Origin: Synechococcus sp.
GTDB lineage: Bacteria > Cyanobacteriota > Cyanobacteriia > Thermostichales > PCC-7336
Assembly: GCA_051439425.1 (NCBI GenBank)
Contig: JBFRWD010000117.1
Span: forward strand, 1 to 43,060
Direction of reading: 5' to 3'
Length of the DNA stretch: 43,060 bases
Below, piece after piece: positions 16,164-34,348 of this stretch. Position 1 is the stretch's first letter, and each line of letters starts with the position of its first letter. Below the pieces are notes generated by a model that had not been told where the DNA came from, made no database searches, and worked only from the letters and a program-made list of their open reading frames with translations. Both the position numbers and the translations under genes were made by a program.

Positions 16164-18050
16164 CTAGTCATCAGCCTCTGATAGCAGCTCTGCCAGATTC
16201 AGCGATTCCAAATCTTCAGATGCTTCGTCACTTTCCTGCTCGACCAGAGCAACAGCATGTTCGAGAGATGCTGCAACAACGGCCTCGGCTTCGCTCTCAC
16301 CCGATGACCCGTTAAATAGATCGGCAAGGTTACCATCTTCGGAATCGGGTGCATTGGGAGCTGTCAACTCGGTCACTGATGAACGATCGACAGAGGAGAA
16401 AAAAGCATCAACATCATTGGCCTCTTCTGCAGGCTCCTCCTCAGCGGCCTCCACAACGCTGCCTTCGATTGCACCTAGCAACTCGTCCAGTGAAGCAGCA
16501 TCAGCAGCTTCTGCTTCAGCCGATACTTCGGTTACGCTATCACCCATCTCGAACGTAGATTCGGATTCGGGTGGTTCACTGAGGAGCGCGCTCAAGCTGA
16601 CATCCTCGTCAGTCTTGGAGTCTTCCATGCTGACAACATCATCTAGTAGGGCATCAGCGTTACCGCCATCGTAAAAGGCTTCAGCGGTGAATGCCTCTAC
16701 AACTTCATCTGATGCAATTTCGGTCGCATCCTCGCCTAACAGTTCGCCCAAGCCCATCTCGTCAGTGAACTCAGGTTCTTCTAGCGTTTCCTCAGTCCTA
16801 GCAGTGGATTCCCGTGCAAGGCTTTCGAATAGAGCATCTTCACTGATTGGGCCATCTTCCAGCGATTCGCTATCCATCGTAGAGTCAAGCAATGCATCCG
16901 AAGGGCTTTCACTCAACAGCCCACTTAGGGTGTTCTCATCTGTGGCTTCGCCATCATCATCGCTAACTAGGTCGCTGGTGGATTCCATTAAAACGGCTTC
17001 GCCATCATCCAAAGAATCTTCACCTAGCGGTTCGTCAGATTCTGCAATCACTTCCTCGCTCGATTCGAGTGAGAGTGGAGCGGAGAAATTGAAAGGCTCT
17101 GCGCTATCTTCCGGTTCGAGCGCAGTCTCATCCTCAGATTCACCGCCAAACAAATCTCCTTCTGCAAAACCTCCCTCAGAGATCGCAGGGTCGGCAGTGG
17201 CTTCAGCCTCAAATGCTTCTTCCTCCGGATCTGCTTCAGGCCGATTAGAGATCGAGTCGCTTGTCGAAGCCGATTCTGAAAACGCTGACTCTAGCTGCTC
17301 GCTGGATTCAGAAGCGGCTACTTCTTCCAAAGATTCATCCGGCGATACAGGTTCTTCTGGCTGGTCAATGGATTCCAACTCTTCAGAAGCTTGGTCAGCT
17401 ACGTTCAGCTCATTGATTTGAGTCTGGAGTTGTTCGAGCTCGGATTGGCGATTTGCAATTGTTTGATTTAACTCAGCCTCAGAGGCCTGCAGCTCACTCA
17501 CTGTTTGCTGTTTAAGTGAAACGTCCTCTTGGAGCTGTTGCTGTTGTTGAGTCAGTTCTTCAAGTTGTTGGCGGGCGCTGGCTAAATCGACACCGGCACT
17601 TTCTTCAACCTGGATAGTTTCATCAAGACTGGAACGCAGTTCGGAAAGCTCCCGCTCTGCGTTTTGCTTGCTACTTTCTAACGCTTGTTGCGCATCTTGC
17701 AATTCTGCAATCTGGGATTGCAATTGCTCTGCTTCTGCTTGTGCACTCAGTAATTGAGATGACAGTTGCGCAATCTCATTCTGTTCTTCGGTGACTCGAT
17801 CACTGGTTTGGTTGGATTCCGCACGAGCGCTTTTTAATTGAGTTTCTAGTTCTGCTACTTTCTGTTCTAGTTGCTCTTTCAGTTGCTTATTGCTGCCACC
17901 GTTTCCGGCAACGGCAATACCGACGATTGTGGAGGAAACAGCCGCAGCGCCACCAACGGCAGCACCCGCAATATCTCGCTGGCTAGCGAATCCTGCAGCT
18001 GCGCCAATGCCAATAGCTGCAACTCCGGCAAGGATGTACTTCTGAACCAT
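16164..18050 (-). CDS. Membrane-anchored coiled-coil protein with a long, very acidic low-complexity tail
   Basis: Two N-terminal hydrophobic segments, ~170 aa Q/E/L heptad region, then ~400 aa rich in E/D/S/A. ATG at 18050. Confidence 0.85.
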   Translation of the reverse strand: MVQKYILAGVAAIGIGAAAGFASQRDIAGAAVGGAAAVSSTIVGIAVAGNGGSNKQLKEQLEQKVAELETQLKSARAESNQTSDRVTEEQNEIAQLSSQLLSAQAEAEQLQSQIAELQDAQQALESSKQNAERELSELRSSLDETIQVEESAGVDLASARQQLEELTQQQQQLQEDVSLKQQTVSELQASEAELNQTIANRQSELEQLQTQINELNVADQASEELESIDQPEEPVSPDESLEEVAASESSEQLESAFSESASTSDSISNRPEADPEEEAFEAEATADPAISEGGFAEGDLFGGESEDETALEPEDSAEPFNFSAPLSLESSEEVIAESDEPLGEDSLDDGEAVLMESTSDLVSDDDGEATDENTLSGLLSESPSDALLDSTMDSESLEDGPISEDALFESLARESTARTEETLEEPEFTDEMGLGELLGEDATEIASDEVVEAFTAEAFYDGGNADALLDDVVSMEDSKTDEDVSLSALLSEPPESESTFEMGDSVTEVSAEAEAADAASLDELLGAIEGSVVEAAEEEPAEEANDVDAFFSSVDRSSVTELTAPNAPDSEDGNLADLFNGSSGESEAEAVVAASLEHAVALVEQESDEASEDLESLNLAELLSEADD

Positions 18051-18525
18051 AGTTATAACGTGGGTGAAAGGGGTGACCTGCAAATTGCGTGTGTCTGTTA
18101 ATCGGTTGAAAAGCTAGAAAATCCTACGTGATTGCACGAGCTATCGACTAAACAGTCAAACTAAAGTACCCACTTTTCTTCCAAACGCAATATCTTGTAA
18201 AAAAATAACTGTATTTTGGATCGATGCTGTATTTCAGTTCCATCCCGAAACCAACCTGTTTGTGAGCCGGACATTGTGAAGGCAGACCGCTTGTCCCCAC
18301 AAAAAGCGAAAGCCTTTGAGCTGGCACCAGCCATGACTATCCCGCTGAATCCAATTATCCTTCCCACTCAGTCTTCCCTTGACCTTGAGTTCAAGGGTTT
18401 ACAGCCTCCGGCTCTGTTCTAGCTGTTAATCTCTGTCGAACTGACGTTAACTCAGACGTGCAACAGTTCTTTGAGCAGGCGATCGATTGAGCCAGTTGCA
18501 GAAGCGATCGCCCGAATGGTCGCGT

Positions 18526-18999
18526 TTAGCTCGCTAAATTAGCTTTAATCTCTGACTCTTGCTCGCGATAGATTTCTTTTTCGCGATCGATAAAAATAGC
18601 AGCCAGGCCATTGTAGGCTTCTGTCCAAGCTCCCATCACTTCAGGAGTCGCAGCATCACCCAAGACATCCTTCATCGCTGCCAACAAGCATTCTCCAATA
18701 ACAGGATACTGTTCTGCAATGACACGAGTGTTGACATGAGCTTTAGCAATACTTTCAACCGCATCACCCAGCTTTTCCAACTCATCGATATGACTTGCGT
18801 ACGCATATACAGATGCAGCTAGCTTAGCAGCCTGTTTCTGGCCATCCTCTTCACTCTTCATATGAGTGTTTTCAAAAAATCTTCTATATTCGGGACGTTC
18901 TGTAAACGCTATCTCGTACATTCTTGCCGTAATAGCTTTTCCGTGCTCTTTCACCACTGGAGCAGTGGCCTTAACGATTTCGATAGTTTCAGCTTTCAT
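18526..18999 (-). CDS. Single-domain 3/3 globin (Vitreoscilla Hb / flavohemoglobin globin-domain type)
   Basis: IVKATAPVVKEHG, ITARMY (B10 Tyr), RRFF (CD1 Phe), QAAKLA (E7 Gln), IAKAH (F8 His), EQYPVIGECLL, AWTEAY. No reductase domain. Confidence 0.93.
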   Translation of the reverse strand: MKAETIEIVKATAPVVKEHGKAITARMYEIAFTERPEYRRFFENTHMKSEEDGQKQAAKLAASVYAYASHIDELEKLGDAVESIAKAHVNTRVIAEQYPVIGECLLAAMKDVLGDAATPEVMGAWTEAYNGLAAIFIDREKEIYREQESEIKANLAS

Positions 19000-20046: not shown

Positions 20047-21642
20047 ATGGTGCTACTTTCGCAAATGCGACAGTTTTCCCGCTCAGTAGCAGTAGCATTT
20101 GCACTTCTCCCCCTCAGTCTGTTGGGCTGTCGCTCGGAGTCTAAAACGATCGGACTTTCCACCGGATCGCCTACCGGCTATTACTATCGGCTAGGCCAGA
20201 CAATCGAAGCCTCTGTCGAAAACACGGTACGCATGGATGTTGATGTCCGACAATCCACAGGATCTTTAGATAACCTGCATCAACTTCTCAATGGCGAAAT
20301 CGATGTCGCCTTGGTTCAACTCGACGTTGCTGAAGAGAGCATGATAGCGGGTGACATTACAGCCATTGCAATCCTTGCCCAAGAGCATATTCACTTAATT
20401 AGTCGCCAGGCGAACAACTCGTCTGCCGAGACAACGACAACGAATGATAATGAACCAGCAACCCTGTCTGACCTTACCGGTCAAACCGTAGCAATTGGGC
20501 CTCCTGGCAGCGGCATTCGGTTCACTGCGAAGCAACTCCTCGATACTGCTCTATTGGATGAGACCGTTCAAGTCGATGAATCCGGTTTTAGCGAGGCATT
20601 AGATCTATTGAGCCAAGGACAGGTAGATGCTGCATTTTATGTGGGTCGCTTGGGTGCCAATGAACGTCTTCGGGAGGCCTTTGCTACCAATCCAGAACTG
20701 AAGTTACTCTCAATATCGCCTGGTTTAGCGAACTTTCTAGCCATTCAAAATCCTGGAGTCTATCGAACAGCAACAATACCTGAAGGTATCTACGGTGTGT
20801 TTCCAAGTCGACCCGAAGGAACGCTGACTAGTCTGACAACACCGACAGTGCTTGTCACTCGCCCCGACATCGAGCCCAGAACGGTTCGCTTAATTACTTG
20901 GTCAATTGTGGCAACAGCCCACCAATACGCATCGTTCTATCCCGAACTCCAATCAGGAGATCCGAACGATCTATTGCGCCAGGGATTATTTTTTGTCCAT
21001 CCAGGTGCCGTTGATGTTTATGAGTACGGCGATCCGCGTCAGGCCTGGGTTCGCTATTGGGAAAGCAACAGCGATCTTCAAGCTGGGATCTTTCTTCTCT
21101 TAGGGACGACCACCGCAGGCATGTTGTTGCAATATTGGCGCAAAATGCGTTCCCATCGCCTGGGCAATAAAATTCATCAGCGTACGATAGAAATCAATCA
21201 GCTGTTAAGCCAGTCCCCACAAGAAGCTCTGCGAGAGATTGAAGAACTCAGTCAAGATAATCGGTTTCAGTTTATTGCTGGCAAGATTCCTGACGAGGTT
21301 TACGTTCAACTTCAGCAAAAAACTCAAACCCTCAGCGACCAGTGTCGCTCGGTACTGGATCGCCAGCGCCGAGAACAAATTCTGAATACCCTTTTGTTGC
21401 TAGACGAATGGCAAGAGACTCTACAAACCGATCCATCTGCGGCCCTGAGCAAGCTCAGCCAAATTAAGCAACAGTACCGAGACATGCTGCTTTCCAATCA
21501 GGTCGATATCCAGGCCTATATGGAGTTGACGGAGCTAACGCTGATTTCGCTGATGACCCTAGCGCCAGAAAAGCGACTATACGCAGATCGGATACCGATG
21601 CTGTCTTCTGAAGATGTGCAATCACCATCCCCTCAGCAGTAG
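20047..21642 (+). CDS. TAXI-family solute-binding lipoprotein fused to a TM helix and a cytoplasmic helical domain
   Basis: Lipobox LLG-C; TAXI motifs STGSPTGYYY, STGSLDNL, AIGPPGSG and VHPGA; TM GIFLLLGTTTAGMLLQYW followed by RKMR. Confidence 0.88.
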   Translation: MVLLSQMRQFSRSVAVAFALLPLSLLGCRSESKTIGLSTGSPTGYYYRLGQTIEASVENTVRMDVDVRQSTGSLDNLHQLLNGEIDVALVQLDVAEESMIAGDITAIAILAQEHIHLISRQANNSSAETTTTNDNEPATLSDLTGQTVAIGPPGSGIRFTAKQLLDTALLDETVQVDESGFSEALDLLSQGQVDAAFYVGRLGANERLREAFATNPELKLLSISPGLANFLAIQNPGVYRTATIPEGIYGVFPSRPEGTLTSLTTPTVLVTRPDIEPRTVRLITWSIVATAHQYASFYPELQSGDPNDLLRQGLFFVHPGAVDVYEYGDPRQAWVRYWESNSDLQAGIFLLLGTTTAGMLLQYWRKMRSHRLGNKIHQRTIEINQLLSQSPQEALREIEELSQDNRFQFIAGKIPDEVYVQLQQKTQTLSDQCRSVLDRQRREQILNTLLLLDEWQETLQTDPSAALSKLSQIKQQYRDMLLSNQVDIQAYMELTELTLISLMTLAPEKRLYADRIPMLSSEDVQSPSPQQ

Positions 21643-21952: not shown

Positions 21953-22657
21953 ATGCTCGCAACCATAGCCATCTTCTTTTTTGCCGCAATGCTACGCGCA
22001 ATATTTGGATTTGGGGATGCTCTAATCGCAATGCCCCTGTTGACCCTAACTTTGGGTATTGGCACCGCCACTCCTCTGTTTGCCCTAATCGCCACCAGTT
22101 CGGCACTGGCTATTTTTGCCACAACCTTTAAGCAGATTGACTTCAAAGCTTCCCGCCAACTGGTATTGTCAAGCATTCTGGGGATTCCCTTCGGCCTCAT
22201 CCTCATCAAACTTGTCCCCGAAGCGATCGTCATGAGGCTCTTGGGAATGTTTTTAATCGTCTTTGCCTTCAATCGCCTTATCCAAAAACAAGCTCCCCGC
22301 ATCAAAAGCCGCTGGTGGGGATATGGATTTGGGTTTGTGGCAGGCGTTCTGGGCAGCGCTTTTAACACCAACGGGCCACCCATCGTAACCTACGCTGCCT
22401 TGCGCCAATGGCCTCCCGATTCATTTCGCTCCAACCTGCAGGGGTACTTTTTCCCTGTTGGACTAATTATTGTGGCCAGTCACGGCATCTCGGGGTTATG
22501 GACTATGCAGGTGGGTCAGTTGTATTTGGCTTGCTTACCGGCAGCGCTGATGGCGATCGCGATCGGCAGCAAAATTCACCAATCACTCCCTCCAAAGAAA
22601 TTTGAAACCCTGCTGTCTCTTCTCCTCGTCATCTTCGGGATTGTTCTAATGATTTAG
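21953..22657 (+). CDS. TauE/SafE family (sulfite/organosulfonate) exporter
   Basis: GFGDALIAMPLL and GVLGSAFNTNGPP motifs; ~8 TM segments, 234 aa. Confidence 0.9.
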   Translation: MLATIAIFFFAAMLRAIFGFGDALIAMPLLTLTLGIGTATPLFALIATSSALAIFATTFKQIDFKASRQLVLSSILGIPFGLILIKLVPEAIVMRLLGMFLIVFAFNRLIQKQAPRIKSRWWGYGFGFVAGVLGSAFNTNGPPIVTYAALRQWPPDSFRSNLQGYFFPVGLIIVASHGISGLWTMQVGQLYLACLPAALMAIAIGSKIHQSLPPKKFETLLSLLLVIFGIVLMI

Positions 22658-22676
22658 CGATCGCCCGGAAAGATAC

Positions 22677-22717
22677 ATACAAGTCAGAGCTTTGTATATT
22701 TATCGAAAAACTTGATA
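22677..22717. promoter_or_regulatory. Adjacent inverted repeats upstream of the ABC operon (candidate LysR boxes)
   Basis: ATACAA-N9-TTGTAT (22677-22697) and TATC-N9-GATA (22701-22717). The second fits the LysR T-N11-A rule. Confidence 0.45.
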
Positions 22718-22889
22718 TCTTAGGCACCGAAATGAACTTGCTTCCCCCTCAGATCTACGTATAAATATTTTGTATCGCACCAAATACTAACGTGATAGTT
22801 AACCTGCACAATTGGTAGTCTTCATCACAAAGCCCTTAGAAGAATCCCGATTGAATTAGCTCAACTCTAACGGCTTTGAGAGACATATC

Positions 22890-24371
22890 ATGACTGCCAT
22901 TGGTTGCTCGAAGTGGACACAGGGGCTTGCCGCATCGCTGCTAATATTTGGTGCTTCAGCCCTCAGTGTTGATGCTGAAACCATCCGAATTTCAATCGGA
23001 ACGCAAGACCAGGTGATTAACACTGCAGTGGGCGGTGCCACCGTACGTGAACTGGAGTTACTCGAAAAGTACCTACCCACAGATGGCGAATACGAAGGGG
23101 TAGAGTACGACATTCAATGGTCCAGCTACACCTCCGGCCCGCCCATTACCAATAAAATGCTGGCCGACCAAATCGACATCGGCCTCATGGGGGATTTTCC
23201 TGCCGTAATCAATATGATTACGTTCCGTGAAGAAAGCGATGTTGAGACAACCTTTATCGGCACGCTTGCCTACAGTTCTAACGGCGCAGGGAATGCCGTC
23301 GTTGTACCGAGAACCAGCGACGCCAGCACCTTAGAAGATTTGCGCGGCGGAGTCGTCTCCGTTCCGTTTGGTTCGGCAGCCCACGGCATGCTGCTGAAGG
23401 CTCTCCAGGATGCAGGTATCGACCCCGAGAACGACCTCCGGCTCATCAGTCAGGCACCTGAGGTCGGGGGCACCAGCCTACGCACTGGCCAAATTGATGC
23501 GCACGCTGACTTTGTACCATTTGGCGAGCTGTTTCCCTTCCGAGGATTTGCTCGCAAGATCTTTGATGGCGCACAAACCGGCGTACCGACCTTACATGGC
23601 ATTGTGGTTCGGGATGATTTCGCAGAAGAGCACCCCGAAATTGTGGTGGCCTTCATGAAGGCGATGCTGGAAGCCAACCAAACATTCCGCGACACCCCAG
23701 AGGCTGTTTCCGCTCAAATTGAGGAATGGTCGGGCATCGACAAAGAAGTGGTCTACATGTTCCTCGGTCCTTCAGGCTTGCAACCCCTTGACCCCACCAT
23801 TCGCCCCGTTCATCTAGAAGCGCTGCAAAATAGCATTGCCACGCTCATTTCTCTGGGCAAAGTCGACCCTGAAATTAACCCAGAGGATGTCAATGGCTGG
23901 GTGGATGAAAGCTTCTTGCAAACCGCAATGGATGAGATGGGACTCGAGTACGATGCGGTTGTAGACGCCGGCGCTACTTATCAAATCGAAGGTAACGACG
24001 CCCTCACCGATGAACCCATTACTGACCCCACATTGGCGGCGCAGTTTTGGGTCCAAGGCGAAGATACAGTTACAAACTTCGCCACAATTGAGAACATGAT
24101 TGGCGGCTTGGATCAATTGCTAGATGAGGGCAAAGCAGCTGACGTCATGTTCGTTCACGATCGCGAAAATGGCTGGAAGCTATTTGCAGAAAATTCATAC
24201 TACGTCCAAGACGGAGAAGAGATTTCTGCCTTTCTCCTCAGAGAAGATGCAGAAGCGTTTGCAGCATCAACAGGGGGAGAAGTCACCGACTTTGGTGGGT
24301 TACAAGAAGCGCTAGCGGTAAGTAGCGATGTCGTAAACAGTGAGGTGGCCAGTATCAACTTGTCAAACTAA
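22890..24371 (+). CDS. ABC transporter substrate-binding protein, SsuA/TauA/NMT1-type, with a C-terminal NosL-like extension
   Basis: Sec signal peptide (VDA-ET); TSGPPITNKML...DIGLMGDFP and VPFGSAAHGML motifs; ~110 aa extra C-terminal domain. Confidence 0.92.
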   Translation: MTAIGCSKWTQGLAASLLIFGASALSVDAETIRISIGTQDQVINTAVGGATVRELELLEKYLPTDGEYEGVEYDIQWSSYTSGPPITNKMLADQIDIGLMGDFPAVINMITFREESDVETTFIGTLAYSSNGAGNAVVVPRTSDASTLEDLRGGVVSVPFGSAAHGMLLKALQDAGIDPENDLRLISQAPEVGGTSLRTGQIDAHADFVPFGELFPFRGFARKIFDGAQTGVPTLHGIVVRDDFAEEHPEIVVAFMKAMLEANQTFRDTPEAVSAQIEEWSGIDKEVVYMFLGPSGLQPLDPTIRPVHLEALQNSIATLISLGKVDPEINPEDVNGWVDESFLQTAMDEMGLEYDAVVDAGATYQIEGNDALTDEPITDPTLAAQFWVQGEDTVTNFATIENMIGGLDQLLDEGKAADVMFVHDRENGWKLFAENSYYVQDGEEISAFLLREDAEAFAASTGGEVTDFGGLQEALAVSSDVVNSEVASINLSN

Positions 24372-24527: not shown

Positions 24528-25388
24528 ATGGCATATTCCCGCACCCCTCCGGCAACGGCAGAATTATTGGAAAATATGCATCAGGGATATGTCAATCTCC
24601 GGTTCAATCTCTCCCGAAATTCTGCTGCGAGAAAGATTGCCTCTCTACTGCTATTTTTAGGGCTGTGGCAGTTATTTTGTGTCATTAATTTCAAGTTTCT
24701 GATTAACTTTCAATTTGTTCCCGCTCCTACTGAAGTTGTCACGGCTACCATTGAATTCTTCTCCTCAGGACCGCTCGTTCATTTCCGCTCTAGTATTTCT
24801 AGAGTGCTGATTGGGTTTGGGATTGCCGCTGTTTTAGGGATGATTTTAGGGATTGCGATTGGCACCTTCCAAAAAGTGGAAGACTTGTTGATGCCCGCTC
24901 TAGAAATTCTTCGTCCGATTCCCGCCGTTGCTTGGATTCCGCTGGCCATTCTCATGTTTCCCTCTGCCGAATCCGGCATGGTTTACATTACGTTTATTGG
25001 CGGTTTTTTCCCCATTTTAATTAGCACCATTCGCGGTGTGGAAAGCATGTTAGGAGATACTGTTCTGCTCCGGGTTGGGCAGTGTTTGGGAGCCAGGCCG
25101 TGGGATGTATTTAAAGACATTGTGGTGCCGGGAGCGTTACCCAGTATTGCGAGTGGTTTAGCGATCGGTATGGGTAATGCCTGGTTCTGTTTAGTTACGG
25201 CTGAAATTTTGGCCGGACGCTACGGCATTGGCTACATTACGTGGGAGTCGTACGTTACCTCAAACTTCCCGCCTATTGTGATGGGGATGCTGCTGATTGG
25301 ATTGATGGGGGCATTTAGTTCTTGGGCGATCGATCGCGTTATGTCGATGTTGATGCCTTGGCGGCGGTTGCAGAAGAAAGGGGTATAG
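24528..25388 (+). CDS. ABC transporter permease, SsuC/TauC/NrtB-type
   Basis: LRPIPAVAWIPLAIL, EAA-like loop GQCLGARPWDVFKDIVVPGALP, and LVTAEI. Confidence 0.95.
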   Translation: MAYSRTPPATAELLENMHQGYVNLRFNLSRNSAARKIASLLLFLGLWQLFCVINFKFLINFQFVPAPTEVVTATIEFFSSGPLVHFRSSISRVLIGFGIAAVLGMILGIAIGTFQKVEDLLMPALEILRPIPAVAWIPLAILMFPSAESGMVYITFIGGFFPILISTIRGVESMLGDTVLLRVGQCLGARPWDVFKDIVVPGALPSIASGLAIGMGNAWFCLVTAEILAGRYGIGYITWESYVTSNFPPIVMGMLLIGLMGAFSSWAIDRVMSMLMPWRRLQKKGV

Positions 25389-25394
25389 GGGTTG

Positions 25395-25488
25395 GGTCGT
25401 TGGTCATTAGTCACTGGTTATTTCGAGGAACAAAGGACTAAGGACTAAGGACTAAGGACTAAGGACTAAGGACAAATGACCAAGGACA
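25395..25488. repeat. Bipartite heptamer tandem repeat (STRR-like), copy 1
   Basis: ggtcgtt-ggtcatt-agtcact-ggttatt, a spacer, then (AAGGACT)x5 at 25433-25467 plus aaggaca-aatgacc-aaggaca. Confidence 0.9.
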
Positions 25489-25565
25489 AGACAAATCCAT
25501 TACAATTCCCATCAAGAATCTCACATCTAGAAAACCTCACATCACCAACCATTTCGAGAACCATC

Positions 25566-26399
25566 ATGCAGACTTCCCAGAAACCAACTGCTGTTTCTCC
25601 AATGCAATCTCAACACCGTAAAGGCTTCGTCGAGGTTGACGATCTGTCTGTATCGTTTCGCAGTCGAGATACGGTGCACGAAGTTCTGCATTCCGTTCGC
25701 TTCCGAGTCAACCCTGGTGAATTTGTTTGCTTGTTGGGACCTTCTGGGTGTGGAAAGTCGACGCTGTTAAATGCGATCGCTGGATTTGTCGCCCCCACCC
25801 AAGGGTCAGTGTCTGTGGATGGAAATCGCGTCACCCGTCCTGGCGCCGATCGAGGATTTGTATTTCAGCAATATTCGCTTCTGCCCTGGAAGACCACATT
25901 TCAGAATGTGGAAATGGGCTTGAAATACCAAAAGATGCCCAAGGGAGAGAGACGGGAGCTTGTCGATCGCTATCTCAATCGGGTGGGGTTATACAAACAT
26001 CGAAATTCCTATCCCCACCAGCTATCTGGAGGTATGCAGCAGCGGGCCAGCATTATCCGGGCGCTGGTCAATTCTCCTGCAGTGTTGTTGATGGACGAAC
26101 CCTTTGCCGCTCTAGATGCTCAAACTCGCCACATGATGCAGGAACTACTGCTGGATATTTGGGATGAGGACAAGACCACGATTGTATTTGTGACTCACGA
26201 TATTGAGGAAGCGGTATTTTTGGGCGACCGCATTCTCGTAATGGGCGTCAATCCAGGTCACATTAAGGAACAAATCAACATTCCCCTCCAGAGACCTCGC
26301 CATATTGACGACATGCTTACTCCTGAATTCACTCAGCTTAACCGCCAGGTATTTGACTTAATTCGGGAAGAAACTCTCAAGAGCATGGAAGTCGAATAG
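25566..26399 (+). CDS. ABC transporter ATP-binding protein, SsuB/TauB/NrtD-type
   Basis: GPSGCGKST, LSGGMQQR, LLMDEPF and VTHDIEEA motifs. ATG 25566 preferred because the upstream ATG at 25476 lies inside the repeat. Confidence 0.96.
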   Translation: MQTSQKPTAVSPMQSQHRKGFVEVDDLSVSFRSRDTVHEVLHSVRFRVNPGEFVCLLGPSGCGKSTLLNAIAGFVAPTQGSVSVDGNRVTRPGADRGFVFQQYSLLPWKTTFQNVEMGLKYQKMPKGERRELVDRYLNRVGLYKHRNSYPHQLSGGMQQRASIIRALVNSPAVLLMDEPFAALDAQTRHMMQELLLDIWDEDKTTIVFVTHDIEEAVFLGDRILVMGVNPGHIKEQINIPLQRPRHIDDMLTPEFTQLNRQVFDLIREETLKSMEVE

Positions 26400-26447
26400 A
26401 GACTTTAGGACCTCACACTACCTCACACTAATTTTGAGATTTTTAGG

Positions 26448-28478
26448 CTAGTTCTTGACAGCCGCCGTCATAAAATCAGCATCGATCCAGCGACCGAGAT
26501 TGAGACTGGCAAACTGGCAATCGTCAGTGGCAGATTGGTAGTGGTTAACATGTTCCACAATCCAGTCGGTACGGATCTGAGTATCGGGGAAGTACAGTCC
26601 TTGCGAATATTGGGTGGGACTGGTGCCCAATATACTATCGATAATACGTGGAGCACTGCGGGTCCATTGGCTTAATTTTTGGCTGGAATTCGGCACTGTT
26701 GCTTGCCAATGCTGAGCTGCCACTAATCCTTTTAAATAACTAACCACCAGATCGGGATGCTCGTCTGCAAATCCTTTGCGAGCCACCACACCATAAAATG
26801 CAGGCAAACCGCTGACATTGCCATCAAATAAATATCGGAACTGATTGCGCTCCAACGCTAATTCGTGAAATGGCGAAAAGTGGGCGTAGCCGGCTATTTC
26901 GCGATCGGACATGACAGCGCGATTCGCTCCATCCATCTTGCGAGCGTTCTCCACAGGAACTAGTTCCACATCTGACGACAATCCGTGCTGGTGCAGCACG
27001 CGCAGCACCATACCGTGCGCTGCCGAGCCGTTGGGAATCGCCAACGCCAGTCCTCGTAAATCGTCGATCTCGTTGACAACAGAATGCTGCGGTACGATCA
27101 CGGCATTTCGACATCCGTCGGGGTTAACCGCTACAAATCCAATCAGAATTGTTGAATCTTCCCCAGCACCCCGCTCCTGGTTGCGCTGAGCGCTCAATAG
27201 CATTGGATAATCCCCCAATATCCCCAGGTCGAGTTGGCCGCAGTGCAATCCATCCACTATGGGCATGCCGGTGGAATAATTTTGCCAGCGCACGTCAAAT
27301 TGAGACGACGCGTACCGTCCTGCTTTGGGTAGATAGTGGTTCAATAACCCCAATTTCTGCATCACAATGCCAGCTGATGCAGACGGAAGCGTTTGATTCT
27401 GCACGCCAATCCGAATGGGTAATGTCTCTGTTTTGTCGATCGTACGAATTGAGGTGGTGTGAGCTGGAGCATCCATCGCAGGTGCAGCACCTCTGAGACT
27501 TGATGCGCCTGTGAATGGGTCCGCTAGCTGACTGTCCCGAGCATTGCGATCCAACAACGTCAGCAGTTTCTGCACGGGGGTCTCGGATTGACTTCGCTTA
27601 CCTACCGAGCGTGCCGATGCCTGCAAACTGTCAAACGTGCGCGACGGGAGGGCCACAAATATAGGAGACGGCAGCGGGAATTCATGGATGGGAAGAGCAC
27701 GCAGTTGTGCAGCAGCAATCTCCGACTGGAAACATAAGGTGGAGGCAAACCCCAAATAGCCACCGGATTCGATGTACGCCTTCATGAGGGCTTCGGTTTC
27801 GGCTATTTCCACTGTCTCCAATTGCTCGATCGCCAGCCCGATATCGGCCAACCGTTGTGCGAACACAGACTGCGCAATGGAATCTTGGCGGTTCAACACC
27901 CATCGTTCCGCTGCCACTTCCGACAGACTGAGGCGATCGCGCATCGCCCAGGGGCTACTGGGTGCACAAATAACGGTGTATTGAATGGACGAAATTGGTT
28001 GAGAGTGGATCTCCTGAGAGTCGCTAAAACTAACTTCTGAAATTCCCAGGTCGGCTTCGGATGATGTCAGCGCGTGATAGATATCTTGGCTGATATTCAC
28101 AATCTTCAGATCGATCTCGATCTCGGGGTTCTGTTCTCGAAACTGAACTAATGGGTTGGCAATATACCCAGTAGCAATCGCCGAAGAGCAGGCAATTTTT
28201 AACACCCCCTTACATCCTTTTTTGTAAGTCTCTAGCTCTTGGTTCAGGGCAGCTTCACGTTCGACTAGATCCGTTGCCCCATCCAGTAAAAATTCACCCA
28301 TCTCGGTCAACTTGACCGTTCGACCCAGGCGATGAAATAAAGGGGCTCCAATGTCCGACTCTAATGACTTAATTTTTGCACTCACGGCTGGCTGGGTTAA
28401 GTTCATCGAGCGTGCCGCTTCAGTGAAACTGAGATATCGAGCCACCTGCAAAAAAACTTTTAGCTGGTAGATTTCCAT
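26448..28478 (-). CDS. LysR-family regulator fused to a C-terminal SsuA-like substrate-binding domain
   Basis: LysR HTH (LKVFLQVARYLSFTEAARSMNLTQPAVSAKIKSLE) and effector domain, a linker, then IRIGVQNQ...GILGDYP...IPNGSAAHGMVL, homologous to the SBP at 22890. Confidence 0.92.
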   Translation of the reverse strand: MEIYQLKVFLQVARYLSFTEAARSMNLTQPAVSAKIKSLESDIGAPLFHRLGRTVKLTEMGEFLLDGATDLVEREAALNQELETYKKGCKGVLKIACSSAIATGYIANPLVQFREQNPEIEIDLKIVNISQDIYHALTSSEADLGISEVSFSDSQEIHSQPISSIQYTVICAPSSPWAMRDRLSLSEVAAERWVLNRQDSIAQSVFAQRLADIGLAIEQLETVEIAETEALMKAYIESGGYLGFASTLCFQSEIAAAQLRALPIHEFPLPSPIFVALPSRTFDSLQASARSVGKRSQSETPVQKLLTLLDRNARDSQLADPFTGASSLRGAAPAMDAPAHTTSIRTIDKTETLPIRIGVQNQTLPSASAGIVMQKLGLLNHYLPKAGRYASSQFDVRWQNYSTGMPIVDGLHCGQLDLGILGDYPMLLSAQRNQERGAGEDSTILIGFVAVNPDGCRNAVIVPQHSVVNEIDDLRGLALAIPNGSAAHGMVLRVLHQHGLSSDVELVPVENARKMDGANRAVMSDREIAGYAHFSPFHELALERNQFRYLFDGNVSGLPAFYGVVARKGFADEHPDLVVSYLKGLVAAQHWQATVPNSSQKLSQWTRSAPRIIDSILGTSPTQYSQGLYFPDTQIRTDWIVEHVNHYQSATDDCQFASLNLGRWIDADFMTAAVKN

Positions 28479-28493
28479 CAATGAGCCCTACAG

Positions 28494-28594
28494 ATAGAAT
28501 TGATTTATGGATGGATTTCAGGTCGCGATAAGAGAGCTATTCTAAGGACGAAAAGACCGATCTAAACTAATACAAACGTAAATTTCGAAATTTA
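28494..28594. promoter_or_regulatory. Divergent promoter region: LysR-type box and a perfect 16-bp palindrome
   Basis: ATA-N9-TAT (T-N11-A) at 28494-28508; TAAATTTCGAAATTTA at 28579-28594. Confidence 0.5.
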
Positions 28595-28713
28595 GTTCCC
28601 TAGCGATCGCCGGACAAATTTTCAGCAGCATTGCTACAGCGGTATAGGGATTCGCTTGGTGTATCCGAGCGAACATTCGACTGGACCTTTATAGCCCCTT
28701 TTCTCTGGGAGAA

Positions 28714-30459
28714 ATGTTTATGGTGAGCACGTTTACGGCAGGTACGCATACGGCGGGTACCCAGAGATTGCAAACCGATGTGCTGGTCGTTGGAGGCGGT
28801 ACAGCCGGAACAATGGCTGCTATCAAGGCGAAGCAAGCCAATCCCGAGGCCGACGTGCTAGTTCTGGAGAAGGCTAACATCCGTCGTAGCGGCGCGATCG
28901 CTATGGGCATGGACGGTGTGAACACCGCAGTTATTCCCGGAAATTCCACGCCCGAACAGTACGTCCGCGAGATCACCATTGCCAACGACGGTATTCTCAA
29001 CCAGGAAGTGGTGTATCAGACGGGCAAGCTGGGCTACGAAGTTATCCAGGAATTGGATAGTTGGGGGGTAAAGTTTCAGAAGGACGCCTACGGTAATTAC
29101 GATCTCAAACAAGTGCATCGTGTGGGTAAATATGTACTCCCGATGCCGGAGGGCAAAGACCTCAAGAAGATTTTGACCCGTGAGGTCAAGCGTCACAAAG
29201 CTAAAGTTATCAACCGAGTTATGGCCACCCGGGTGATTGTTAGCGATGGGCGAGCCACTGGGGTAACGGGCTTTGATGTTCGCAATGGCGATTTTGTCAT
29301 TATTCAAGCCAAAGCCGTCATTCTTTCCACCGGAGCTTGTGGACGATTGGGTCTCCCTCAATCGGGCTACCTCTACGGCACCTACGAAAATCCCACTAAC
29401 GCCGGTGATGGCTATGCCATGGCCTACCATGCTGGGGCCGAGCTCAGCAATATTGAATGCTTCCAAATTAATCCGCTGATTAAGGACTACAACGGGCCGG
29501 CTTGCGCCTATGTCGCCGGCCCCTTTGGTGCCTATACCGCTAATGCTGAAGGGAATCGCTTCGTCAGCTGCGATTACTGGAGCGGCCAGATGATGCTGGA
29601 GATCTATAAGGAACTCCATTCCGGACGCGGCCCCATCAGCCTCAAGCTGAATCACTTGGACGAGGACACCATTTCCGAGATCGAAGAGATTCTCTGGGCC
29701 AACGAGCGGCCCAGTCGCGAACGCTTCCACGAAGGTCGTGGCGAGAATTATCGCACCCACGGCGTCGAGATGGAAATTTCCGAAATTGGTCTCTGCAGCG
29801 GTCACAGTGCTTCGGGGGTACGTGTCGATGCTAAGGCTGCAACTACAGTTCCCGGTCTGTACGCGGCGGGAGATATGGCCTCCGTCCCCCACAACTACAT
29901 GATTGGAGCCTTTGTCTTCGGTCGCATTGCCGGAACCAACGCGATTGAATACTGTCGCGAGCTTCCACATGTAGAGCCCGACCCCGATTTCATTGCGGCA
30001 GAGATGGAGCGTATCTACCGTCCTCTCAAGCAGCCGGAGGGAGTGCCCCACACCCAGGTGGAATACAAGCTGCGTCGGTTTGTGAATGACTATCTCCAGC
30101 CCCCCAAGAACACCCACAAGATGGAGATTGCTTTAGACAAGTTCGTGAATTACTATTCCACTCTCGATTTGATGGGGGCTCGCGATCCGCACGAGCTGAT
30201 GCGCTGCATGGAAGTGCATGCCATTCGTGACTGTGCAGAGATGGCGGCTCGCGCCTCTTTGTTCCGCAAAGAGAGTCGCTGGGGTCTGTACCACTATCGA
30301 GTGGATTACCCCGAGAAGAACAACGACGAGTGGTTCTGCCACACCCATCTCAAAAAGGACGAGTCGGGGGAAATGACGATCGCCAAAGCCCCGATCGAAT
30401 CCTACGTAGTGGATGTGGATCTGGAGAGTGAAACCTACGACGTCGCGATTAATGCCTGA
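28714..30459 (+). CDS. FAD-dependent oxidoreductase of the SdhA/FrdA/AprA family, APS-reductase-alpha-like
   Basis: DVLVVGGGTAG FAD motif, RSGAIAMGMDGVN (cf. AprA RSGAVAQGLSAIN), NAGDGYAMAYHAGA, GLYAAGD, RKESRWGLYHYRVDYP. No SdhA-type flavinylation His motif (SHT). Confidence 0.9.
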   Translation: MFMVSTFTAGTHTAGTQRLQTDVLVVGGGTAGTMAAIKAKQANPEADVLVLEKANIRRSGAIAMGMDGVNTAVIPGNSTPEQYVREITIANDGILNQEVVYQTGKLGYEVIQELDSWGVKFQKDAYGNYDLKQVHRVGKYVLPMPEGKDLKKILTREVKRHKAKVINRVMATRVIVSDGRATGVTGFDVRNGDFVIIQAKAVILSTGACGRLGLPQSGYLYGTYENPTNAGDGYAMAYHAGAELSNIECFQINPLIKDYNGPACAYVAGPFGAYTANAEGNRFVSCDYWSGQMMLEIYKELHSGRGPISLKLNHLDEDTISEIEEILWANERPSRERFHEGRGENYRTHGVEMEISEIGLCSGHSASGVRVDAKAATTVPGLYAAGDMASVPHNYMIGAFVFGRIAGTNAIEYCRELPHVEPDPDFIAAEMERIYRPLKQPEGVPHTQVEYKLRRFVNDYLQPPKNTHKMEIALDKFVNYYSTLDLMGARDPHELMRCMEVHAIRDCAEMAARASLFRKESRWGLYHYRVDYPEKNNDEWFCHTHLKKDESGEMTIAKAPIESYVVDVDLESETYDVAINA

Positions 30460-30649: not shown

Positions 30650-30877
30650 ATGGCCTTAACTTCTCAACGTGTCGATGTCCCCGTCATTGTGGACGAGTCC
30701 AAATGTCTGGAAAAATGTACCGCCTGCATTGAAGTCTGTCCATTAGACGTACTGGTCAAAAATCCCGAAACCGGCAAAGCCTATATGAAGTATGACGAAT
30801 GCTGGTTTTGCTTGCCCTGCGAAAAGGAATGCCCAGTGGATGCGATTACCGTGCAGATCCCGTTTTTGTTGAGGTGA
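30650..30877 (+). CDS. 2x[4Fe-4S] ferredoxin, AprB-like small subunit
   Basis: CLEKCTACIEVCP and CWFCLPCEKECP; CW-x-C pattern as in AprB. Confidence 0.93.
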   Translation: MALTSQRVDVPVIVDESKCLEKCTACIEVCPLDVLVKNPETGKAYMKYDECWFCLPCEKECPVDAITVQIPFLLR

Positions 30878-31060: not shown

Positions 31061-32023
31061 ATGGATAGCGAACTACAACAATGGGTCGAGATGTTGCAGT
31101 CAGAAGATGTTGGCGATCGCCTCGTTGCCGTTAAGATGCTGCAGCACGAGGGGGATGAAGAGGCTCTGGAGCCACTGATTGGAGCATTACCTGACGAGAA
31201 TCCAGGGGTGCAAAAACTGGCAATTACCACACTGTGGGAGATGGCGAACCACCAGGCGGTACGTCCGCTGATTCCCTGCTTGGGGTCGCCGCACGAAGAG
31301 GTGCGAACCGAAGCGCTCGGGGCTTTGAAAGAACTAGTCATTCCCGACGATTTACTGTTGCTGCTGGATGCTCTGCATCAAGAAGACATTAATATGCAGC
31401 TCAATATTTTGGTGCTGCTGCGCAAGATTCACGACGTGCAAGCCTTGCCGTATATCCTGCCGTATTTTGAATCCGACAACGAAGAGTTACGAGAAGCTGC
31501 GATAACGACACTGCGATACCTCAATCAGGTCACCAGCTGTGCTCCGGCCCTCGCACTGATGAGCGATCCATCTCCAGTCGTTCGTCGAGAAGCGGCATTG
31601 ACCATTGGCTACTTACAGGATGACGAGGTGGTCGATTTGCTCAATCAAGCACTGACAGATGAAGACTGGCAAGTCAGGCGCAATGCCGCCCAATCAATTG
31701 CCATCCTCAAGCCTCAAGCCTCCATTCCTCCACTGAGCGAAGCCATGACGGACGAGCACTGGCAGGTGCGTAAGTTTGTGGCTCGGGCGTTGCAGCAGGT
31801 GCCGGACGACAGTGCGATTCCCGTCCTGGTTGCTGCGTTAGCTGACGAGTATTCAGATGTAAGGCGAGATGCGGCGATCGCATTGGGAAATATTGGCAAT
31901 CCATCCGTGATCAATTCCCTCAAACAGACTCTCGACGATCCGGACGCGGACGTGCGGATTTTCTCGCAGCGGGCGATCGACGCCATCGAGGGGGCACAGG
32001 CAGCAGAGGTATCCAATGGTTGA
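31061..32023 (+). CDS. HEAT-repeat (PBS lyase-like) protein
   Basis: About 10 repeats of ~31 aa (L-x-D-E-D/H-W-Q-V-R-x-x-A-A-x-x-L). Overlaps the mrp start by 8 bp. Confidence 0.92.
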   Translation: MDSELQQWVEMLQSEDVGDRLVAVKMLQHEGDEEALEPLIGALPDENPGVQKLAITTLWEMANHQAVRPLIPCLGSPHEEVRTEALGALKELVIPDDLLLLLDALHQEDINMQLNILVLLRKIHDVQALPYILPYFESDNEELREAAITTLRYLNQVTSCAPALALMSDPSPVVRREAALTIGYLQDDEVVDLLNQALTDEDWQVRRNAAQSIAILKPQASIPPLSEAMTDEHWQVRKFVARALQQVPDDSAIPVLVAALADEYSDVRRDAAIALGNIGNPSVINSLKQTLDDPDADVRIFSQRAIDAIEGAQAAEVSNG

Positions 32024-33134
32024 ACACTCATCCCCCATTCAAGTACAACAGCCTCCTTCCAAGCAGGAACAGGCTACTGATGACAAAGTTCTCATGCAAG
32101 AACGAGAGGCGATCGCTGCCCTTAAGACGGTCATCGAGCCCAATTTAGGCAAAGACATTGTCAGTTTGGGCATGGTTCGCAACCTGCGCATTGTTGATGA
32201 TTACGTATCCGTCCGTCTCTATATCGGAGCCCACCAGACTGACATAGAAGAACAAGTACTGCAGAAACTAAACGACCTACCGTGGAGCAAGAAGGGTTAC
32301 GTGCAGCGATGCTCGATTCCAGGTGTGCGGACTACGATCGCGGTGTCCAGTGGTAAAGGAGGGGTTGGTAAATCCACCACTGCTGTCAACCTGGCAGCTG
32401 CGCTGAGCATGCAAGGGGCAAAAGTAGGGGTACTGGATGCGGATGTATACGGGCCTAACGTTCCGCATATGTTGGGGTTGGGGCATGCAGATGTCGAGGT
32501 ATTTGAAACTCCTAACGGTCAGCGATTTCGCCCACTAGAAGCACATGGAATTAAAGTGATGTCGGTGGGGCTGCTGGCAGAACCAGACCATCCGTTGGCG
32601 TGGCGCGGGCCAGTATTGCACAAAATCGTGACCCAGTTTATTCACGACGTGGAATGGGGAGAGCTGGATTATCTGCTGATCGATTTACCTCCCGGCACCG
32701 GAGATGCCCAAATCACCATCGTTCAGGAAAGTCCCATTTGTGGCGTAGTTCTCGTGACAACACCCCAGCAGGTGGCATTGTCTGATGTGCGCCGCAGCAT
32801 CCACATGTTCCGCAATGTTGGGGTGCCAGTGTTGGGAATTGTGGAAAACATGAGCTATCTAAAACAAGATAATGGCGATCGCCTCTTTGTTTTTGGGGCT
32901 GGTGGTGGCGAGCAATTGTCTAAGGAACTCAATGCTCCATTGATGGGACAAGTTCCCTTGGAACCCAATATTTGTAGCCAAGGGGACCGAGGGAAACCGA
33001 TTCCTCTAATTGATAACCAGTCCGATATTTCCCTAGTGTTTGGACAAATCGCCTGCGAGTTAATTCGTATCTTTGGCATGAATGACGAAGGAGAAAATGT
33101 CGAAATCGACAATCAGGCTCTGAGTTTAGCTTAA
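32016..33134 (+). CDS. mrp: Mrp/NBP35/ApbC family Fe-S cluster carrier ATPase with an N-terminal DUF59-like domain
   Basis: SGKGGVGKST deviant Walker A, LDADVYGPN, WRGP, IDLPPGTGDAQ, VTTPQ and GIVENMS motifs. Confidence 0.93.
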   Translation: MVEHSSPIQVQQPPSKQEQATDDKVLMQEREAIAALKTVIEPNLGKDIVSLGMVRNLRIVDDYVSVRLYIGAHQTDIEEQVLQKLNDLPWSKKGYVQRCSIPGVRTTIAVSSGKGGVGKSTTAVNLAAALSMQGAKVGVLDADVYGPNVPHMLGLGHADVEVFETPNGQRFRPLEAHGIKVMSVGLLAEPDHPLAWRGPVLHKIVTQFIHDVEWGELDYLLIDLPPGTGDAQITIVQESPICGVVLVTTPQQVALSDVRRSIHMFRNVGVPVLGIVENMSYLKQDNGDRLFVFGAGGGEQLSKELNAPLMGQVPLEPNICSQGDRGKPIPLIDNQSDISLVFGQIACELIRIFGMNDEGENVEIDNQALSLA

Positions 33135-33355
33135 TGTCGAAAAATATATGTATTCGACAGCCACCACTGATAAATAGTAACGACTATAAGTTCGCTTGTC
33201 CGTGAATTTGATGTCTTCTGATATTGGATTTCTATCCACTTGTTAGCTCAAAAGATATTTTTCGTTGGCTTGGTTTTCCTGCTCGCAATGACATACACAC
33301 TCTTATGGTGAGACTGTCTCCCTAAGAATCATTTTTTTCTTTGGAAGAGAGATAC

Positions 33356-34348
33356 ATGCACAAGATCGATCGATGGTTATATGGGGTGTATTTGTGCGTG
33401 GCAATCGCAGTCATCTCAAAACTTCTGTCGTTCTATCTTCCGCTTGGGTCGGTAGCTATAGCCTTGATTTTGGGAATCGTTGTTGGAAATAGTGTTGCTA
33501 TAGGAGAAGGTTTAAAACCTGGAATTATGTTCAGTGAGAAAGTCCTGCTTTCCCTGGCAATCGCATTGATGGGAGTCAATCTTGACTACTTTGTATTGCG
33601 AGAGCTGGGAGGGCGAACAATTTTCTTGATTATTTTAGCCATAGGGTTATCGACTTCCTTTACTGTATATATTGCCAGAATAATGGGAGTGAAACCCACC
33701 CAGGCGTTACTGATTGGAATTGGGAATGGAATTTGCGGAAGCTCGGCAATTGCGGCAACCAATCACATCATCAAGGCGAAGGAAGAAGATGTAGGCATTG
33801 CGATCGCAATCGTCAATTTCCTTGGGACGATTGGGATGCTTTCTCTGCCAATCCTGGCAAAGATTATTCTTGGGTTTACCGATATTCAGGTGGGTATCTT
33901 GATCGGAAACACCCTTCAAGCGGTGGGTCAAGCTGCTGCTGGTGGCTTCTCTGTCAGCGACACTGCCGGTCAAACGGCAATCATTGTCAAAATGGGTAGA
34001 GTCATGATGCTTTCCCCATTTTTACTCATTCTGTTTGTAAGCCTTTCGAGTAAAGGGCTGCCAGAGTTGAGAGGAGAAGCAGATATGCGAAAGCAACAAA
34101 TCCCTTTATTTATTTTTGGATTTATTTTTTTCTCGCTGCTTTCTACTTTTAATATTATCTCTCAAACGTATATTGAGTTTCTGAGTGTTGTGGGCAATAT
34201 TCTTCTACTGGTTGCCATGTCGGGAATTGCTCTTAAAATCAATATATTTTCCATTCTTAAGAATGGCAGAAAAGTCCTGATGTTGGGGTGCTTCACATTC
34301 ATTGTTCAAATACTATTCAGCACATCTCTGATCCAACTGATGTATTAA
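33356..34348 (+). CDS. YeiH / putative sulfate exporter (PSE, UPF0324) family membrane protein
   Basis: GNGICGSSAIAA, IGNTLQAVGQ and IVKMGRV motifs; ~10 TM segments; visibly more AT-rich than its neighbours. Confidence 0.9.
   Translation: MHKIDRWLYGVYLCVAIAVISKLLSFYLPLGSVAIALILGIVVGNSVAIGEGLKPGIMFSEKVLLSLAIALMGVNLDYFVLRELGGRTIFLIILAIGLSTSFTVYIARIMGVKPTQALLIGIGNGICGSSAIAATNHIIKAKEEDVGIAIAIVNFLGTIGMLSLPILAKIILGFTDIQVGILIGNTLQAVGQAAAGGFSVSDTAGQTAIIVKMGRVMMLSPFLLILFVSLSSKGLPELRGEADMRKQQIPLFIFGFIFFSLLSTFNIISQTYIEFLSVVGNILLLVAMSGIALKINIFSILKNGRKVLMLGCFTFIVQILFSTSLIQLMY

Follow-up and report, generated by a model that had tools for sequence, protein, structure and literature searches.

Why would a LysR-type transcription factor carry a domain that resembles the binding protein of the transporter encoded next to it? 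This question is raised by a gene in a 43,060-nucleotide stretch of Synechococcus sp. DNA (assembly GCA_051439425.1, contig JBFRWD010000117.1, positions 1 to 43,060; hereafter the window). The gene (26448..28478, minus strand, ATG at 28478) encodes a regulator of 676 aa whose C-terminal half has the predicted SsuA/TauA fold of substrate-binding proteins (SBPs). On one side lies an ATP-binding cassette (ABC) importer with its own cognate SBP, and on the other an operon for an enzyme resembling adenosine 5'-phosphosulfate (APS) reductase. The reading that we favor, with a rough probability of 0.55, is that the regulator binds predicted operators at the promoters of both, senses the imported oxyanion through its fused domain, and co-activates importer and enzyme together with NtcA at low nitrogen. 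We consider it slightly better than an even bet that the protein is a local activator of both operons and a repressor of its own gene. From the sequence and model evidence described below we infer DNA binding, ligand binding, activation and NtcA binding.

Architecture and reality of the fusion

The preliminary description of this locus had proposed a LysR protein extended by a binding-protein domain, and both the open reading frame (ORF) and Pfam searches confirmed this architecture. Residues 5-62 (28293..28466, minus strand) form the LysR winged helix-turn-helix (HTH; Pfam HTH_1, PF00126, E 1.6e-21, 76.4 bits against a cut-off of 26.6), the most conserved part of the family, and residues 90-287 (27618..28211, minus strand) form the effector-binding domain (LysR_substrate, PF03466, E 1.7e-28, 99.8 bits against a cut-off of 28). 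On the basis of the homologue alignment and the structural model, a variable linker with one conserved residue, Pro338, spans residues 316-350 (27429..27533, minus strand), and the SBP-like domain occupies residues 351-676 (26451..27428, minus strand). Within the latter, Pfam NMT1_2 matched residues 354-602 (E 7.7e-9), and TIGR01728 reached 79.8 bits, below its cut-off of 163.5. The likeness to the SBP at 22890, first noticed by eye, was borne out by BLASTP against the protein encoded at 22890-24371 (94 of 274 residues identical, 34%, E 3e-54), an alignment that includes all five of the motif pairs originally quoted. Neither a signal peptide nor a NosL-like tail is present, as had also been stated: the protein begins with the HTH, its best 19-residue Kyte-Doolittle mean is 1.35, so that it has no strongly hydrophobic segment, and it ends ahead of the region matching the NosL-like tail of the cognate SBP.

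The AlphaFold2 model of the whole regulator, built with 55 homologues, had a predicted local distance difference test (pLDDT) score of 85.9 and a predicted template modeling (pTM) score of 0.81, and this full-length value hints at a defined arrangement of the domains. Foldseek matched the first half to CcmR (E 3e-23) and the second half to SsuA. When taken in isolation, the modeled C-terminal domain had a class II SBP fold (against SsuA, Z 28.1, root-mean-square deviation 3.2, 278 residues aligned). Its Z scores were 26.9 for TauA, 23.3 for NrtA and 23.4 for NrtC, with NrtC, CmpC and NrtA all at 23-24; the predicted fold is nearer to SsuA/TauA than to NrtA/NrtC.

The fusion is real and does not stem from assembly error. 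A contig of run X1, from which the present DNA may itself derive, covers 26217-28900 with no difference from the window, and one contig of run X2, which belongs to a separate study, covers 25710-28442 with 38 substitutions and no gap. Out of 7999 candidate proteins of comparable length, a search matched 292. The 120 matches listed cover 95-100% of the query and are 632-706 aa long, compared with about 300 aa for a two-domain LysR protein, and all those bearing an organism name are cyanobacterial. Closed genomes also carry the fused regulator, cultured carriers include Synechococcus sp. PCC 7336 and Leptolyngbya sp. PCC 7375, and the ESM Atlas holds two clusters of the family, automatically named cyanobacterial LysR/NMT1. 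Among GTDB loci, for which all counts refer to the best 80 of 583 and are biased toward close relatives, both halves lie in a single ORF in 75 of 80, and none is split cleanly at the junction, which rules out the refuting case named in the preliminary description, homologues that are always split. Of the other five, four are cut at contig ends and one is truncated along with its flavoprotein. Across 301 genomes sampled evenly from the cyanobacterial class, a profile search found the regulator domain in 41 genomes at E 2e-119 or better (a single-sequence search of the phylum had found 5 of the 301), and 41 of the 42 such matches sit in frames of at least 662 aa. The few broken loci could be cited for an artefact of sequencing, assembly or read-through: a truncated regulator (L070) and two of the 75 one-ORF loci with breaks, both away from the junction (L105 and L032). 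The single ORFs, the open frames, the closed genomes and the two spanning contigs refute this explanation, whose likelihood we regard as negligible.

Several members of the family depart from the common pattern. In L070 (Nostoc flagelliforme FACHB-838), the N-terminal half of the regulator and much of the flavoprotein are gone, leaving a decayed locus. Four proteins (P0133, P0136, P0139 and P0144), one of them named Cyanobium sp. NAT70, form a divergent fusion sub-clade; in three of the four the LysR effector domain is barely recognized by Pfam and the SBP-like domain persists. In addition, the cluster is often plasmid-borne in Pseudanabaena and others (L048, L049, L060, L093 and hits H1-H4) and is present in two copies in one genome (G517); plasmid location and double occurrence suggest that it is mobile.

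Descent and proposed sensing role of the two halves

To place the fused domain, a quick maximum-likelihood tree was made, with support from the Shimodaira-Hasegawa-like approximate likelihood ratio test (SH-aLRT). Its 72 rows were library proteins and a subsample taken from 80 fused domains and 36 SBPs. The tree united 29 of 30 fused domains in one clade (SH-aLRT 100, stem 1.15), which sits among NosL-tailed SBPs and apart from the clade formed by the cognate SBPs of cyanobacteria; the tree fixes no attachment point. As judged from this topology, the fused domain appears to be a single old capture and an ancient paralogue. A recent duplication of the adjacent SBP gene was considered and rejected by the long-stemmed fused clade outside the cyanobacterial SBPs. 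Thus, the domain is a cytoplasmic SBP paralogue, as had been claimed, and the description of it as the regulator's own copy has to be amended, since by the tree it is an old paralogue and not a recent duplicate. It should be noted that another protein (P0265, 683 aa), in which a LysR HTH is joined to a C-terminal domain distantly similar to SBPs and to a tail, falls outside the cyanobacterial fused clade and is possibly an independent fusion.

The binding pocket was compared with that of Xanthomonas SsuA, whose sulfonate ligands are Gln36, Gly68, Gly86 and Ser141 according to the available part of its description (PMC3839906). By alignment, these correspond to Q360, G404, G422 and position 486 of the fused regulator. 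Over 88 fused domains, Q360 and G422 are present in 100% and G404 in 95%; position 486 is Ser in 62% and Ala in 28%, with Ala in the protein of the window, and the adjoining S485 is present in 99%. Conservation of pocket residues at 95-100% is found in a family that is overall only about 40% identical. F534 is shared by fused domains and cognate SBPs, and the outgroup proteins have Trp. The residues kept (Q360, G404, G422, S485 and F534) indicate that the oxyanion pocket is intact, as far as an alignment can tell. SsuA and TauA (3ksx, 6ssy) therefore resemble the fused domain in fold and in the sulfonate-binding Gln/Gly/Gly/Ser positions, the latter taken from the portion of PMC3839906 at hand. 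They differ from it in overall sequence (about 20% identity) and at Trp185, which is replaced by Phe; the fused domain also lacks a signal peptide and is internal, behind an HTH.

The surface of the domain has changed more than its pocket. The motif Q-x-P-E-V-G, invariant in 36 cognate SBPs, is variable and poorly predicted in the fused domain, and W591, W605, D638 and W639 are invariant and specific to it, which may mean that permease docking was lost and a new surface gained. These new invariant aromatic residues could be taken to indicate that the domain is a docking or oligomerization module for a partner protein (PII, the transporter ATPase or the enzyme), with the pocket having no part in signal input. 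A precedent is the C-terminal regulatory domain of NrtC, which is about 30% identical to NrtA and works through PII binding, with a nitrate-site mutant that behaves like the wild type (PMC10945777, as far as the accessible text goes). On the other hand, the new aromatics could equally pack on the LysR domain, and the strong conservation of pocket residues is hard to reconcile with a pocket of no use; we consider a pure docking role rather improbable.

In the LysR half, conservation is uneven. The mean share of the top residue in the HTH is 0.87 over 55 homologues. At cleft positions 98-100 and 128-130, the top residue occurs in only 13-36 of the 55. Conservation is fair along one side of the cleft (P201 in 41, S202 in 44, R203 in 49, D227 in 45 and T228 in 41), and the effector domain is complete and predicted at a pLDDT of about 90. 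The nearest solved relative of the N-terminal 300 aa is CcmR (5y2v, E 6e-26), also the best Foldseek match of the effector domain. CcmR/NdhR, of the CbbR subfamily of LysR proteins, is related to the LysR half only and carries no appended SBP. The CcmR residues at the variable cleft positions and the motif R-E-x-G-S-G-T-R, which serve in ligand binding in CcmR, are not kept in the fused regulator.

This bears on the two-input sensor of the preliminary description, in which the LysR cleft would take a metabolite (for example, 2-oxoglutarate or a product of the pathway) and the imported substrate would go to the fused domain. The complete, well-predicted effector domain, its affinity to CcmR/NdhR and the conserved side of the cleft are in its favor. 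Against it are the freely varying positions, the loss of the CcmR residues and motif, and the NtcA boxes described below, which would already furnish a status input. The part concerning the SBP-like domain is supported by the conserved fusion and the intact pocket of an SBP paralogue, and the part in which the LysR cleft reads metabolic status is not supported; the two-input version as a whole seems unlikely to us. Metabolic status probably enters via NtcA rather than through the poorly conserved LysR cleft, and the LysR effector domain may serve here mainly as scaffold and relay.

The reuse of SBP folds as cytoplasmic sensors is already known, as is the cooperation of LysR proteins with NtcA. 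NasS/NasT and SgrR are examples of the former: SgrR joins an HTH to a family-5 SBP domain with no LysR effector domain between them, and NasS is a separate protein that acts on an RNA antiterminator. The analogy with NrtC drawn in the preliminary description also holds, for the regulatory domain of NrtC/CmpC (PDB 8wm7, 9uak) is likewise a fused, cytoplasmic, cyanobacterial domain that is paralogous to its cognate SBP (about 30% identical), with Z of 23-24 to the domain studied here. However, according to the consulted sections of PMC10945777, that domain sits on an ABC ATPase and controls transport via PII, whereas the present one sits on a transcription factor and is nearer to SsuA/TauA. An open-access literature search, which lacked most subscription papers, found no full LysR protein with an appended copy of a transporter SBP.

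Predicted operators and NtcA-type boxes at both promoters

We analyzed 54 dereplicated intergenic regions between regulator and flavoprotein genes (of 69) and 36 regions upstream of the importer (of 46). Gibbs sampling recovered a motif of 25.1 bits on the flavoprotein side and one of 22.1 bits on the importer side, compared with 10-12 bits for shuffled sequences. Both consist of two AT-N11-AT boxes separated by a 6-bp spacer, 21 bp apart, with the consensus ATAA-N7-TTAT. When a matrix trained on importer promoters alone was applied to the 54 flavoprotein-side regions, 40 of them scored higher than the 95th percentile for shuffled sequences, and in 49 of the 54 the best site overlapped the independently found motif. 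The two intergenic regions singled out in the preliminary description (22658-22889 and 28482-28713) both carry such operator-like boxes. With a matrix trained on other genomes, the tandem box (15+6+15 bp) at 28494..28529 (plus strand), upstream of the flavoprotein gene, ranked first in the 4.8-Mb genome, and that at 22761..22796 (plus strand), upstream of the SBP gene, ranked third; both are predicted operators. Tandem boxes of the T-N11-A type and divergence from the target operon are usual for LysR-type regulators, and this locus shows both. The former sits 15 bp upstream of the start codon of the regulator, from which self-repression would follow. A candidate -35/-10 pair with a 17-bp spacer for the flavoprotein operon was recognized by eye at 28540..28568 (plus strand), and the same spacing is seen in L026. 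The median matrix score was 17.3 for importer promoters of regulator-bearing clusters, -0.1 for 14 upstream regions of regulator-less clusters, in which the tandem box was not found, and -0.2 for random AT-rich windows.

The site ranked second in the genome (G000:C93:13541-13576, or L121:8541-8576) has on one side a TauA/SsuA-like ABC importer accompanied by an M20 deacylase and on the other a hydrolase pair, one allophanate-hydrolase-like and the other biuret-hydrolase-like; together these are likely a nitrogen-scavenging cluster. It may be a further target of the fused regulator or the site of another LysR protein.

A second type of box accompanies these operators. GTA-N8-TAC is the binding site of the nitrogen regulator NtcA, and NtcB occupies a pair of tandem palindromes in phase with it, cooperation between the two proteins requiring helical phasing (available part of bioRxiv 10.1101/2022.10.10.511513). 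The strict form occurs downstream of the LysR boxes in 30 of the 36 importer promoters (expected, 0.55), at offsets of 6-7, 17-18, 27-29 and 38 bp, that is, about one helical turn apart. In the window, a GTA-N8-CAC box with one mismatch lies at 22815..22828 (plus strand), 18 bp past the LysR boxes, followed after 22 bp by a candidate weak -10 element (22851..22856, plus strand), similar by eye in most homologous promoters. On the flavoprotein side, the strict box occurs in 14 of 54 promoters (expected, 1.4), and a relaxed box in 29 of 54 (expected, 2.6) at a single fixed position, each followed by TAN3T at 30-32 nt. What had appeared to be a third LysR box at the flavoprotein promoter was re-read as an NtcA-like box. 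A genome-wide count of TGTA-N8-TACA was uninformative.

The closest parallel is NtcB with NtcA at nirA of Anabaena, where a LysR protein likewise occupies two tandem 15-bp palindromes with a phased GTA-N8-TAC downstream. In the consulted part of the same preprint (10.1101/2022.10.10.511513), the NtcB box is ATGC-N7-GCAT-N7-ATGC-N7-GCAT, 15 bp from the NtcA box, whereas here the boxes are ATAA-N7-TTAT with a 6-bp spacer and the distance is 6-38 bp; the NtcB structure described there has DNA-binding and effector domains only, and the fused regulator has an added SBP domain. Because NtcA boxes stand beside the LysR boxes, the cluster is probably under nitrogen control, as NtcA and NtcB exert at nirA, and the likely physiology is the acquisition of nitrogen rather than sulfur scavenging. 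We also considered a sulfur demand of nitrogenase as the cause of the NtcA link; nifD is present in 17 of 41 regulator genomes (94 of 301 overall), and its absence from the other 24 weakens this idea.

On this basis, the following mechanism may be proposed. At each of the two flanking promoters, the regulator would sit on its tandem boxes. Once imported, the substrate would make the captured SBP domain close, and the tetramer would shift on the boxes. NtcA would act as the gate for nitrogen status and the local LysR protein as the report on substrate, as NtcB and NtcA do at nirA, so that both would co-activate the importer and the APS-reductase-like enzyme when nitrogen is short.

The gene cluster and its candidate substrate

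The regulator gene is divergent from the flavoprotein-ferredoxin-HEAT-Mrp operon and convergent with the ABC importer, and two putative exporter genes flank the cluster. In plus-strand order, homology and domain searches identified a TauE/SafE sulfite-exporter family protein (21953..22657), the cognate SsuA/TauA-like SBP of 493 aa (22890..24371), an ABC permease of the NitT/TauT type (24528..25388) and an ABC ATPase of 307 aa without a C-terminal regulatory domain (25476..26399). The NosL-like tail of the cognate SBP was matched at residues 383-474 (E 9e-4, 20 bits, under the 24-bit cut-off). Beyond the regulator follow an AprA-like flavoprotein (28714..30459; PRK08275, 996 bits against a cut-off of 587), an AprB-like ferredoxin of 75 aa (30650..30877), a HEAT-repeat protein (31061..32023), an Mrp/ApbC Fe-S carrier (32016..33134) and a protein of the putative sulfate exporter family YeiH (33341..34348, below the TIGR00698 cut-off), all on the plus strand as well.

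Some further features were observed nearby. A short tract of 7-bp tandem repeats between the permease and ATPase genes (25396-25487) differs in length between runs X1 and X2. A protein of 779 aa (P0146, two members) has the HEAT-repeat protein fused to a cognate-type SBP and may be a read-through of adjacent genes. Upstream of the cluster are a single-domain globin resembling the N-terminus of flavohemoglobin (18526-18999, minus strand) and a binding protein of the TAXI type, extended at its C-terminus by a membrane and helical part (20047-21642, plus strand), both unmatched in the 80 related loci, and a very acidic low-complexity protein of 639 aa (16164-18083, minus strand) with an N-terminal hydrophobic segment and a coiled-coil-like region.

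Linkage of regulator, enzyme and importer is frequent. Among the 80 GTDB loci, many of them cut by contig ends, the flavoprotein accompanies the regulator in 71, the cognate SBP in 47 and TauE or YeiH in 36, and 40 of the 41 regulator genomes in the 301-genome sample have the flavoprotein and 39 the cognate SBP. Conversely, the flavoprotein occurs in 53 of the 301 genomes: the regulator is matched in full in 40, the matches are partial or to the SBP only in 2, and both regulator and cognate SBP are absent from 11. One of these 11 copies is at a contig edge, and the other 10 (type B) lie near a generic SsuA-like gene, several of them adjoining methionine/cysteine or ssu-like genes (in part named by eye). 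BLAST found no match to the TauE/YeiH exporters in the 10 type-B loci, where one TauE-like ORF was seen by eye (L113). Of three proteobacterial enzyme loci, two had no adjacent regulator and one had a GntR protein; a strict sigma-54 pattern was absent from all three, an uninformative result. Two fused regulators (L081:8906-10975 and L087:8951-10978) stand without the flavoprotein operon beside unrelated SsuA-like transporters, in L081 also with a flavin monooxygenase-like gene.

The type-B loci bring in a different explanation, a sulfur-scavenging system like asfRABC, in which another LysR protein would use the tandem boxes or GTA-N8-TAC would have some other use, and the fused protein would sense sulfonate or sulfur status. 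The SsuA/TauA fold, the Apr-like enzyme, the sulfur-related neighbors of the regulator-less copies and the occurrence of the rank-2 box site at an unrelated cluster all fit it. In the review PMC4267179, as far as available, asfRABC of Pseudomonas putida S-313 comprises a LysR protein, reductase, ferredoxin and binding protein for sulfonate use; it is described as controlled by sulfate limitation, and that description includes no fused regulator. However, the phased NtcA-consensus boxes in most importer promoters, the exporter genes in 36 of 80 regulator loci with no BLAST match in type-B loci, and the failure to find the tandem box at clusters without the regulator all speak against such a system, and we judge it improbable for the clusters that carry the fused protein.

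As for the enzyme, the closest solved relative of the flavoprotein is the alpha subunit of 3'-phosphoadenosine 5'-phosphosulfate (PAPS) reductase (8A8O, E 7e-70). The AprAB enzymes (8A8O, 1JNR; PMC10322725, in the part consulted) share the pairing of flavoprotein and ferredoxin, to which a HEAT protein, Mrp and an importer are added here. In AprA-type catalysis, N5 of FAD attacks sulfur and sulfite is released (same source). Across 65 + 11 + 4 sequences, the flavoprotein shows hardly any variation in its active-site stretches, which are alike in both cluster types; this suggests one substrate. In all 80 flavoproteins examined, Leu takes the place of the Arg at AprA position 265; an Asn and a His are retained in the alignment. 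Since the same enzyme would serve for nitrogen in exporter-bearing clusters and for sulfur in ssu islands, the substrate would carry both elements, and an AprA-type attack of FAD on sulfur suits an N-S bond, which makes sulfamate the leading candidate. This assignment is a tentative guess by elimination. Sulfamate would be split reductively via FAD into ammonium and sulfite; the cell would retain the ammonium and export the sulfite through TauE/YeiH. A search of open-access literature listings found nothing on reductive use of sulfamate by bacteria or on the gene cluster itself; for yeast, a sulfate route is given in the accessible part of PMC5534208. In two enzyme loci, of Nostoc (L108) and on a Methylocystis plasmid (L109), genes for a GNAT acetyltransferase and an amidase stand alongside the enzyme module and possibly handle N-acylated precursors of the substrate.

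Several observations weigh against the reading in which the fused regulator senses the imported oxyanion and acts with NtcA. Some pocket positions are unlike those of the cognate SBP (D207 of the SBP versus H/Y533), so the ligand of the fused domain may be a derivative or product; the SBP-like domain of NrtC binds nitrate, yet its binding site is dispensable for regulation (available sections of PMC10945777); and the regulators of L081 and L087 adjoin unrelated transporters. The promoters, though dereplicated, come from related genomes and are not independent, and of the 36 importer sites no more than 20 score higher than the 95th percentile of a random control that itself probably included true sites. 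Moreover, the relaxed NtcA pattern was picked only after the sites had been seen, the importer box of the window has a mismatch, no NtcA box was recognized at the flavoprotein promoter of the window or at 25 of the 54 such promoters, of 32 importer promoters only 4 have a strict TAN3T 21-23 nt past the box, and 5 of the 14 upstream regions of regulator-less clusters contain strict NtcA-like words at scattered places. The choice of sulfamate, finally, is a guess resting on elimination.

The wider picture is that about one in seven of the sampled cyanobacteria would scavenge nitrogen by a new pathway, in which this flavoenzyme reductively cuts the N-S linkage in sulfamate, or in a closely similar N-sulfo compound, to give ammonium and sulfite. 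Control would lie with a LysR protein gated by NtcA, in which a captured SBP has taken over effector sensing from the LysR cleft, and the enzyme would serve sulfur scavenging elsewhere; taken in its entirety, this picture is doubtful. The promoter anatomy offers a point of entry to an orphan enzyme module that is widespread (PRK08275 flavoprotein, ferredoxin and HEAT protein), for which it predicts nitrogen control in cyanobacteria and narrows the substrate to an oxyanion bearing nitrogen and sulfur. Two soluble binding domains and two predicted operators would suit a direct ligand screen. If the favored reading is true, a LysR protein would have acquired a new sensor through capture of the binding protein of its transporter, which would also be of interest for the design of biosensors.

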